A stretch of DNA of 64,000 nucleotides from Escherichia virus TH41, in sequence record MT446412.1; one strand, given 5' to 3'. Shown here piece by piece: positions 33,418 to 34,108 of this stretch (the stretch's first letter is position 1; each line of letters begins with the position of its first letter). Made by a program: the position numbers and the translations under genes. The notes below the pieces were generated by a model. It saw nothing but the letters and a program-made list of their open reading frames with translations. It made no database searches and was not told the DNA's origin.

Positions 33418-33653
33418 TGTCTGAACAAACTATTGAACAAAAACTGCAGTCCGAAATCGTTATCCTTAAATCCCGTATTCTGGACACTCAAGACCAGGCT
33501 GGCCGCATTAAAGCTGAATCTGACCAGTTTGTTAATGCACTTGGTCAGATTGCCCAGCTGGTTGGCGTGACCGGTGAAACTGTTAAGCTGGAAGATGTTA
33601 TCCAGGCTGTCGCTGATAAAATTGCACCGGCACCTGCAGCTGACGAAGAATAA
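33417..33653 (+). CDS. 57A: Tail fibre assembly chaperone gp57A
   Basis: 78-aa helical ORF, N-terminus [27 protein letters not shown] resembles T4 gp57A. Confidence 0.8.
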
Positions 33654-34108
33654 TGACATTAAATGAAGTCTCTGAAGGACTTTATGTTGCAGCCAAATTT
33701 TCAGAATTAACTCTTGATGCGCTGGAAAATCTCCAGCGCTCTCTTAAAGTACCTAATCCCGTTCCTCGCGAAAAATTCCATTCCACCATTTGTTATTCCA
33801 GAGTAAATATTCCGTATGTTGTTGCTTCTGGTAGTTTCGAAGTCGCTAACTCTGGACACCTGGAAGTGTGGAAAACTGATGATGGGAGCACCCTGGTTCT
33901 TGTACTGAATTCAGATTATCTTAGTTGCAGACATATGTATGCACGAGCCATTGGCGCAACACATGATTTCCCGGACTATACTCCTCACATAACATTATCC
34001 TATAATGTTGGTCCTTTGACGTATAAAGGAGAAGTTCAGATTCCGGTTGTTTTAGACCGTGAATATAAAGAACCGCTAAAATTAAATTGGTCGGCGGATT
34101 TAAAGTAG
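33653..34108 (+). CDS. 57B: gp57B-like 2H phosphoesterase (Acb1-like)
   Basis: 151-aa ORF with two H-x-T motifs (FHSTI, PHITL) typical of 2H phosphoesterases; synteny after 57A. Confidence 0.7.

Follow-up and report, generated by a model that had tools for sequence, protein, structure and literature searches.

A predicted T4-type Acb1 anti-CBASS gene upstream of an internal-protein array in a Gaprivervirus coliphage

The DNA window considered here (the whole stretch of 64,000 nucleotides that was analysed) was assigned by DNA searches to the genus Gaprivervirus, which comprises VR7/SP18-like Tevenvirinae coliphages. The gene under study, acb1 (gene 57B), follows gene 1 and gene 57A on the same strand and precedes a series of genes for internal proteins (IPs); the features of the locus are collected in Table 1. 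The gene order gp1-57A-57B is also found in T4, T6, EAWsc9, UPEC01, PM2, Makalu, PVA23, phiAS5 and an Acinetobacter phage. The TAA stop codon of 57A shares one base with the ATG start codon of acb1 (TAATG). A stop/start overlap between 57A and 57B is present in six of nine Straboviridae loci, as TAATG in the window, EAWsc9, T6, the Acinetobacter phage and PVA23, and as ATGA in T4, which suggests translational coupling of 57A and acb1.

Table 1. Genes and sequence elements at the acb1 locus and at the second anti-CBASS locus (positions in the window).
Feature	Position	Strand	Description
Gene 1 (dNMP kinase)	32740..33417	+	Pfam PF21448 DNMK, E=5e-77; conserved upstream neighbour
T4-type late-promoter consensus TATAAATA	33199..33206	+	Within gene 1; lies 454 nt upstream of the acb1 start codon (ATG); candidate late promoter of 57A and acb1
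Gene 57A (tail-fibre assembly chaperone)	33417..33653	+	Pfam PF17594 GP57, E=4.6e-25
acb1 (gene 57B)	33653..34108	+	151 aa; ATG at 33653, stop at 34106-34108; predicted 2H-family cyclic-oligonucleotide phosphodiesterase, anti-CBASS protein 1
First catalytic H-x-T motif, FHSTI (H43-S44-T45)	33779..33787	+	Corresponds to T4 H44/T46
Second catalytic H-x-T motif, PHITL (H112-I113-T114)	33986..33994	+	Corresponds to T4 H113/T115
C-terminal lid segment, residues 144-151	34082..34105	+	W146 corresponds to T4 W147; would close over bound ligand
Intergenic element after the acb1 stop	34109..34149	+	Sigma-70-like promoter match TGTACA-17-TATTAT overlapping hairpin GTGTAGG...CCTACAC
Five internal-protein (IP) genes	34169-34501, 34510-34782, 34791-35090, 35146-35424, 35479-35733	+	N-terminal capsid-targeting leader each
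Sixth leader-bearing ORF	49481-49780	+	
acb2 (vs.4)	50973..51251	+	Putative 92-aa cyclic-oligonucleotide sponge

The two H-x-T motifs of the acb1 product are spaced by 69 residues, which equals the distance between H44 and H113 in T4 Acb1. Two such motifs at a distance of 55–85 residues occur in only one of the 132 stop-to-stop segments of at least 100 amino acids found in six frames of the window, namely in the acb1 ORF itself, and the pattern reappeared in only 0.7% of 100,000 shufflings that kept the composition of the protein. It is unlikely that the twin pattern arose by chance. The motif count is superseded by evidence from the whole protein, in which the full-length family match is decisive. 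Pfam family PF23474 (Acb1) matches residues 8–148 along positions 1–143 of a profile of 144, with 200.3 bits against a cut-off of 27 bits (E=1.5e-59), and no other Pfam family matches at E<=0.1. Models for Acb1, Acb2 and the IPs are absent from NCBIfam, which returned no match for the acb1 product at E<=1. Among all PDB sequences, the top match is Acb1 of Erwinia phage FBB1 (7T26/7T27; E=3.7e-62, residues 9–147). Because the identity to the crystallised FBB1 construct (1.1-Å structure) is about 69%, the protein is predicted to adopt a 2H phosphoesterase fold that is compact and bears a C-terminal lid, and a different fold is very unlikely. A single-sequence AlphaFold2 model, computed with no homologue alignment as input, has a pLDDT of 38.9, too low for use.

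Alignment with T4 gp57B (NP_049750.1, 152 aa) displays 82.8% identity and a single terminal gap. T4 Acb1 has a 2H phosphoesterase fold with an HxT/HxT tetrad of H44, T46, H113 and T115; residues Y12, W74, F107 and W147 stack on the bases, E141 contacts the adenine N6, and residues 145–152 form the lid (PMC9117128). All nine residues named in that study are identical in the acb1 product, each at T4 position n-1. The catalytic tetrad H43/T45/H112/T114 maps one-to-one onto that of T4, and the base-stacking aromatics Y11, W73, F106 and W146 together with E140 correspond to the T4 aromatics and E141. In an alignment of nine homologues from phages of six host genera (Escherichia, Erwinia, Proteus, Acinetobacter, Vibrio and Aeromonas), with identity down to 36%, residues H43, T45, H112, T114, Y11 and W146 are invariant.

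The original prediction had described this ORF as a gp57B homologue with H-x-T motifs at the spacing of a 2H phosphoesterase. Both motifs and the T4-equal spacing were found, and the identity to gp57B extends to every catalytic and substrate-contact residue; the alignment to T4 Acb1 that had been proposed as a check retains both catalytic His residues, H43 and H112. The statement that T4 gp57B is Acb1 agrees with the literature (Hobbs et al., 2022; PMC9117128), and the position directly upstream of the internal-protein array holds as well, since five consecutive leader-bearing ORFs follow on the plus strand. Taken together, we regard it as close to certain that the product of the ORF is a functional orthologue of T4 Acb1 (gp57B), and its chemistry, substrate range and phenotype we infer by orthology from work on the T4 and FBB1 proteins.

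T4 gene 57B was identified as encoding Acb1 by activity-guided fractionation following the cleavage of cGAMP (Hobbs et al., 2022, Nature; PMC9117128). During T4 infection, cGAMP-degrading activity appears at about 15 min (Hobbs et al., 2022), and the cGAMP-cleaving activity is gone from lysates when acb1 is deleted (Hobbs et al., 2022; PMC9117128). The T4 deletion mutant suffers a plating loss of more than 300-fold on CBASS hosts and none on CBASS-free hosts (Hobbs et al., 2022). The reaction is metal-independent and proceeds in two steps, cutting 3' of adenosine via a cyclic phosphate to yield a linear 3'-phosphate; the T4 enzyme is without activity on cGG, 3'2'-cGAMP and cA4 (PMC9117128). 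According to a transcriptome atlas, both 57B/acb1 and vs.4/acb2 show middle/late expression in T4.

By orthology, Acb1 of the window phage would be a small metal-independent phosphodiesterase of the 2H family, made in middle or late infection, with its translation probably coupled to that of the tail-fibre chaperone gene 57A. It would bind the adenosine-containing cyclic di- and trinucleotide messengers of CBASS cyclases, namely 3'3'-cGAMP, cUA, cAAA and cAAG. The ligand would be held in a U-shaped pocket, its bases stacked against Y11, W73, F106 and W146 and its adenine N6 read by E140, and the C-terminal lid would close after the ligand is seated. The tetrad H43/T45/H112/T114 would then catalyse the reaction in which the adenosine 2'-OH attacks the 3'-5' bond, leading to a 2',3'-cyclic phosphate and subsequently to a linear 3'-phosphate. 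With the signal removed, CBASS effectors (nucleases and phospholipases) would stay inactive, and the phage would escape abortive infection.

The window protein and T4 Acb1 differ by 26 substitutions, which are concentrated in the first 9 residues, at surface positions and at three lid residues. Most are conservative or introduce the same residue as in the active FBB1 enzyme (e.g. D108P). Three of the eight lid positions differ, with the W unchanged, and the residue beside the first catalytic His is altered (I43F in T4 numbering). Given the lid changes and I43F, a modest shift in substrate preference relative to T4 may have occurred. A stronger version of this idea, that the protein is an Acb1 orthologue with drifted specificity or activity, being either inactive or directed at other cyclic nucleotides than T4 Acb1, would draw on the same 26 substitutions, including I43F and the three lid changes, and a plausible pressure exists in Panoptes-type guards, which select against broad cyclic-nucleotide degraders. 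We consider such drift very improbable and rejected it. The nine named functional residues are all identical to those of T4, and the gene is evidently conserved, being intact and 95.6–98.9% identical at the DNA level in the best 30 of 37 matching records. Moreover, cleavage of 3'3'-cGAMP and cAAA was seen with T4 Acb1 and with every one of nine further, diverse homologues (Hobbs et al., 2022; PMC9117128), and these nine are far more divergent than the window protein.

Slightly less probable still is the alternative that the product is a LigT-like 2'-5' RNA ligase or a cyclic phosphodiesterase whose substrates are RNA ends, as in tRNA repair. The name 'RNA ligase' is indeed attached to orthologues in PHROG 755 and in many RefSeq records, tRNA genes lie nearby in the window phage, and the H-x-T/H-x-T signature is common to the whole 2H superfamily. 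Against this, the LigT and 2_5_RNA_ligase2 families of Pfam give no match at E<=0.1, and a nine-sequence profile searched against the PDB at E<=10 retrieves only Acb1 structures and one Acb1-like portal domain, with no chain named LigT or CPDase. The T4 orthologue was itself purified by its cleavage of cGAMP, and its deletion abolishes the activity in lysates. The label 'RNA ligase' is an inherited guess at the level of the superfamily, and this reading was rejected on the results from Pfam, the PDB profile and the T4 biochemistry.

Returning to the assignment as Acb1, the signals for its expression may be considered. The late-promoter consensus inside gene 1 has counterpart upstream sites in T4 (-602), T6 (-605), the Proteus phage PM2 (-591) and the Acinetobacter phage (-385). 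The window contains 17 sites of TATAAATA where 5.0 are expected, further ones being located at 34493-34500 (+) and 30752-30759 (+). A MotA-type middle promoter (TGCTTYA-N10-14-TANNNT) was found nowhere on the plus strand between 22.8 and 36.8 kb. The stop/start overlap and the late-promoter consensus, with promoters called here as consensus matches, fit the middle/late timing known from T4.

Over the window, the TATAAATA sites follow the local gene strand: 12 are on the minus strand between 1394 and 21464, and all sites below 21.5 kb are minus and all sites above 30.7 kb are plus. This is consistent with a switch in the direction of late transcription between 21.5 and 30.7 kb.

The intergenic element after acb1 combines a putative promoter with a hairpin of -16.7 kcal/mol (z=-1.8), which has a 7-bp stem, carries the -10 hexamer in its loop and lacks a T-run. 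The same promoter-in-hairpin layout follows 57B in T4 (locus L003) and T6 (locus L002) in another sequence, TTTACA-17-TACTAT inside GATGAGGTA...TACCTCATC; among the window, T4 and T6, it is the architecture of this element that is conserved and not the sequence. The element may serve as an early promoter of the IP genes, or act in the processing or stability of RNA. No terminator was detected behind acb1 by a generic scan. Because this element stands between acb1 and the first IP gene, and another late-promoter consensus is located at 34493, acb1 and the IP genes do not obviously form one operon.

The leader MKT(Y/F)xEF(I/L/F)xE starts all six ORFs, the five of the array (34169–35733) and the sixth at 49481, and their bodies are mutually unrelated. 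The T-even capsid-targeting leader ends in a site for the prohead protease, and packaging and cleavage of the IPs in the window are predicted from this leader. Four of the five array ORFs match PHROG families of internal head or virion proteins, and the ORF at 34169 matches only a PHROG of unknown function. The ORF at 35479 displays 44% identity to T6 Ip6 and is the only one of the six with a recognisable named relative; a characterised homologue is absent for four of the five array IPs. Array content varies among Gaprivervirus genomes that are otherwise 95–99% identical. The array is a mosaic, because the 3.66-kb stretch that runs from gene 1 past the IP genes is covered to 80% or more in only 26 records, as compared with full coverage of acb1 in 37 of 37. 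In the record of phage EAWsc9 (locus L001), the IP orthologues at 4521-4853 and 5143-5442 are named 'profilin' and 'homing endonuclease', and these names for leader-bearing IPs of 99–111 aa look spurious. Beside the sixth IP gene lies an ORF of 175 aa (49942-50469, plus strand) that matches PHROG 1488 (unknown function) and has weak P-loop NTPase/terminase-N-like matches (Pfam E of about 0.03; PHROG 2, terminase large subunit, E=6e-4).

For T4, an anti-defence island that includes acb1 next to ipI has been described (Hobbs et al., 2022; PMC9117128). Of the T4 proteins Ip1, Ip2 and Ip3, each blocks a GmrSD type IV restriction enzyme distinct from those of the other two, and the Ip loci are regarded as an anti-defence hotspot (PMC12373910). 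A counter-defence locus at 33.6–35.7 kb is a reasonable reading by analogy, and one that is already published for T4. Outside the leader of about 10 residues, no IP of the five in the array is orthologous to T4 IpI, and for this reason we infer an anti-defence role of the IPs in the window phage from that analogy. The adjacency of acb1 and the IP genes is inherited synteny and no evidence for a shared function. Tentatively, and with somewhat more doubt than confidence, we hypothesize that a hypervariable island of injected effectors has acb1 as its conserved anchor, and that at least one of the five IPs is a capsid-delivered inhibitor of a host defence not yet matched to any IP. If true, the targets could be more GmrSD variants or other systems, which would extend the published proposal on T4 Ip1-3.

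That Acb1 is itself functionally part of the array, carried in the capsid and delivered along with the DNA, is the least probable of the alternatives and was rejected: it could appeal to the five adjoining leader-bearing IP genes and to possible virion-borne Acb1 domains in other phages (as portal fusions), but Acb1 is unlikely to be injected because its N-terminus is without a capsid-targeting leader of the MKTYQEF type, in T4 the activity is not seen until about 15 min into infection and the transcripts are middle/late, and acb1 is coupled to upstream 57A and divided from the IPs by the promoter/hairpin element.

The portal fusions are an observation in their own right. The Acb1 profile matches residues 482–610 of the portal protein of the Pseudanabaena cyanophage Pam3 (PDB 8HDS chain A; E=1.5e-8). 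This domain keeps both motifs, LHVTI and SHISL (HVT and HIS), and by itself reaches 96 bits against Pfam PF23474 (cut-off 27). The annotated portal gene Pam3_03 contains it as a C-terminal fusion, at 2501-2887 of locus L010. Counterparts of the Pam3 domain were found by tblastn in 57 records, from phages of Rhizobium, Synechococcus, Pseudomonas, Citrobacter and Vibrio, and among the matches listed from these 57 records the matching region is annotated as portal in most of 15. The Pam3 structure paper does not mention the Acb1-like domain, and no report of an Acb1-portal fusion was found in the literature searched. This data suggests that some phages may carry an Acb1-type cyclic-oligonucleotide nuclease in the virion.

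Acb2 (Vs.4) is a second anti-CBASS protein. The original prediction could not assign an Acb2 homologue among the ORFs at 50466–51556; in this it fell short, as the ORF listed as acb2 in Table 1 lies within that range. Its product matches Pfam PF24729 (Acb2_Tad1_hairpin; E=4.3e-15, 56.1 bits against a 27-bit cut-off) and aligns with T4 Vs.4 (PDB 7UQ2) over its full length (residues 1–92, E=1.7e-28). The N- and C-terminal thirds are near-identical to T4 Vs.4, and the central region of about 35 residues is diverged and contains a small insertion. This central divergence could alter the cyclic-trinucleotide pocket, which according to the literature is the less conserved one. Acb2 of phage PaMx33 binds cyclic dinucleotides via Y11 and K26 (PMC10312549); by inspection, the motif IKGY (Y8) and a Lys 15 residues further on (K23) match the PaMx33 Y11/K26 motif and its spacing. 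A RegB gene (51556-52071) lies downstream of acb2, as in the vs-regB region of T4. Acb1 and the Acb2 sponge have the same target, the CBASS signals, and differ in that Acb2 has an unrelated fold and sequesters the signals as a hexamer without cleaving them; the two genes are 17 kb apart in the window. Because acb2 was found at 50973–51251 besides acb1, the window phage has both predicted anti-CBASS genes, like T4.

With this full T4-type pair of an Acb1 nuclease and an Acb2 sponge in a Gaprivervirus, resistance to many CBASS systems is predicted. Recent papers report that Panoptes guard systems restrict Acb1-encoding Tevenvirinae and that phages escape by inactivation of acb1; recent work further indicates that Panoptes fires on cyclic-nucleotide depletion, and sensitivity of the window phage to Panoptes-type guards is predicted from this work. 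Phage Bas43 is a natural acb1 nonsense mutant that escapes Panoptes, in contrast to the window phage, in which acb1 is intact. Should the phage be considered for therapy, these predictions on CBASS and Panoptes would matter for predicting its host range.

For acb1 itself there is essentially no room for a novel reading. In phage CJ20, a protein 100% identical to window Acb1 is encoded. As such relatives are deposited and the family is both curated and structurally solved, acb1 here is a known member of a known family and nothing new. The gene is fully covered in 37 of 37 matching records, 32 of which match it at 95–99% DNA identity, and by tblastn homologues of its product are present in 1,478 phage records. 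Phage UPEC01 shares the 3.66-kb region at 99.3% identity. Among the Gaprivervirus orthologues (CJ20, UPEC01, P479, VR7, SP18 and EAWsc9), acb1 is essentially the same and the content of neighbouring IPs varies. The orthologue is named 'anti-CBASS protein Acb1' in the EAWsc9 record and 'RNA ligase/cyclic nucleotide phosphodiesterase' in that of UPEC01; orthologues are still called 'RNA ligase' or 'hypothetical protein' in many records, and the assignment has little importance beyond correct annotation. Phages VR7, SP18, VR20, VR26 and CJ20 are not named in the text supplementary files of Hobbs et al. (2022; PMC9117128).

Acb1 of phage FBB1 is about 69% identical to window Acb1 over 139 aligned residues and has both H-x-T motifs; its structures, 7T26 (apo) and 7T27 (3'3'-cGAMP complex), serve as the template from which the 2H fold and its ligand pocket are predicted. 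It differs from window Acb1 by a one-residue insertion after position 79 and by a Phe in place of W73. T4 Acb1 resembles window Acb1 in length (152 versus 151 aa), tetrad, aromatics and the adenine-reading Glu, and its gene occupies the same slot between 57A and the internal-protein locus. The locus after 57B differs: in T4 a single ipI follows 57B directly, in the slot that is held by the five IP genes in the window. Members of the 2H superfamily in general carry a twin H-x-T/S catalytic signature and perform metal-independent transesterification. Acb1 has both properties in common with its relatives LigT and CPDase (PMC9117128), and it differs from them in its substrate, which is an RNA end for LigT and CPDase and a cyclic oligonucleotide for Acb1.
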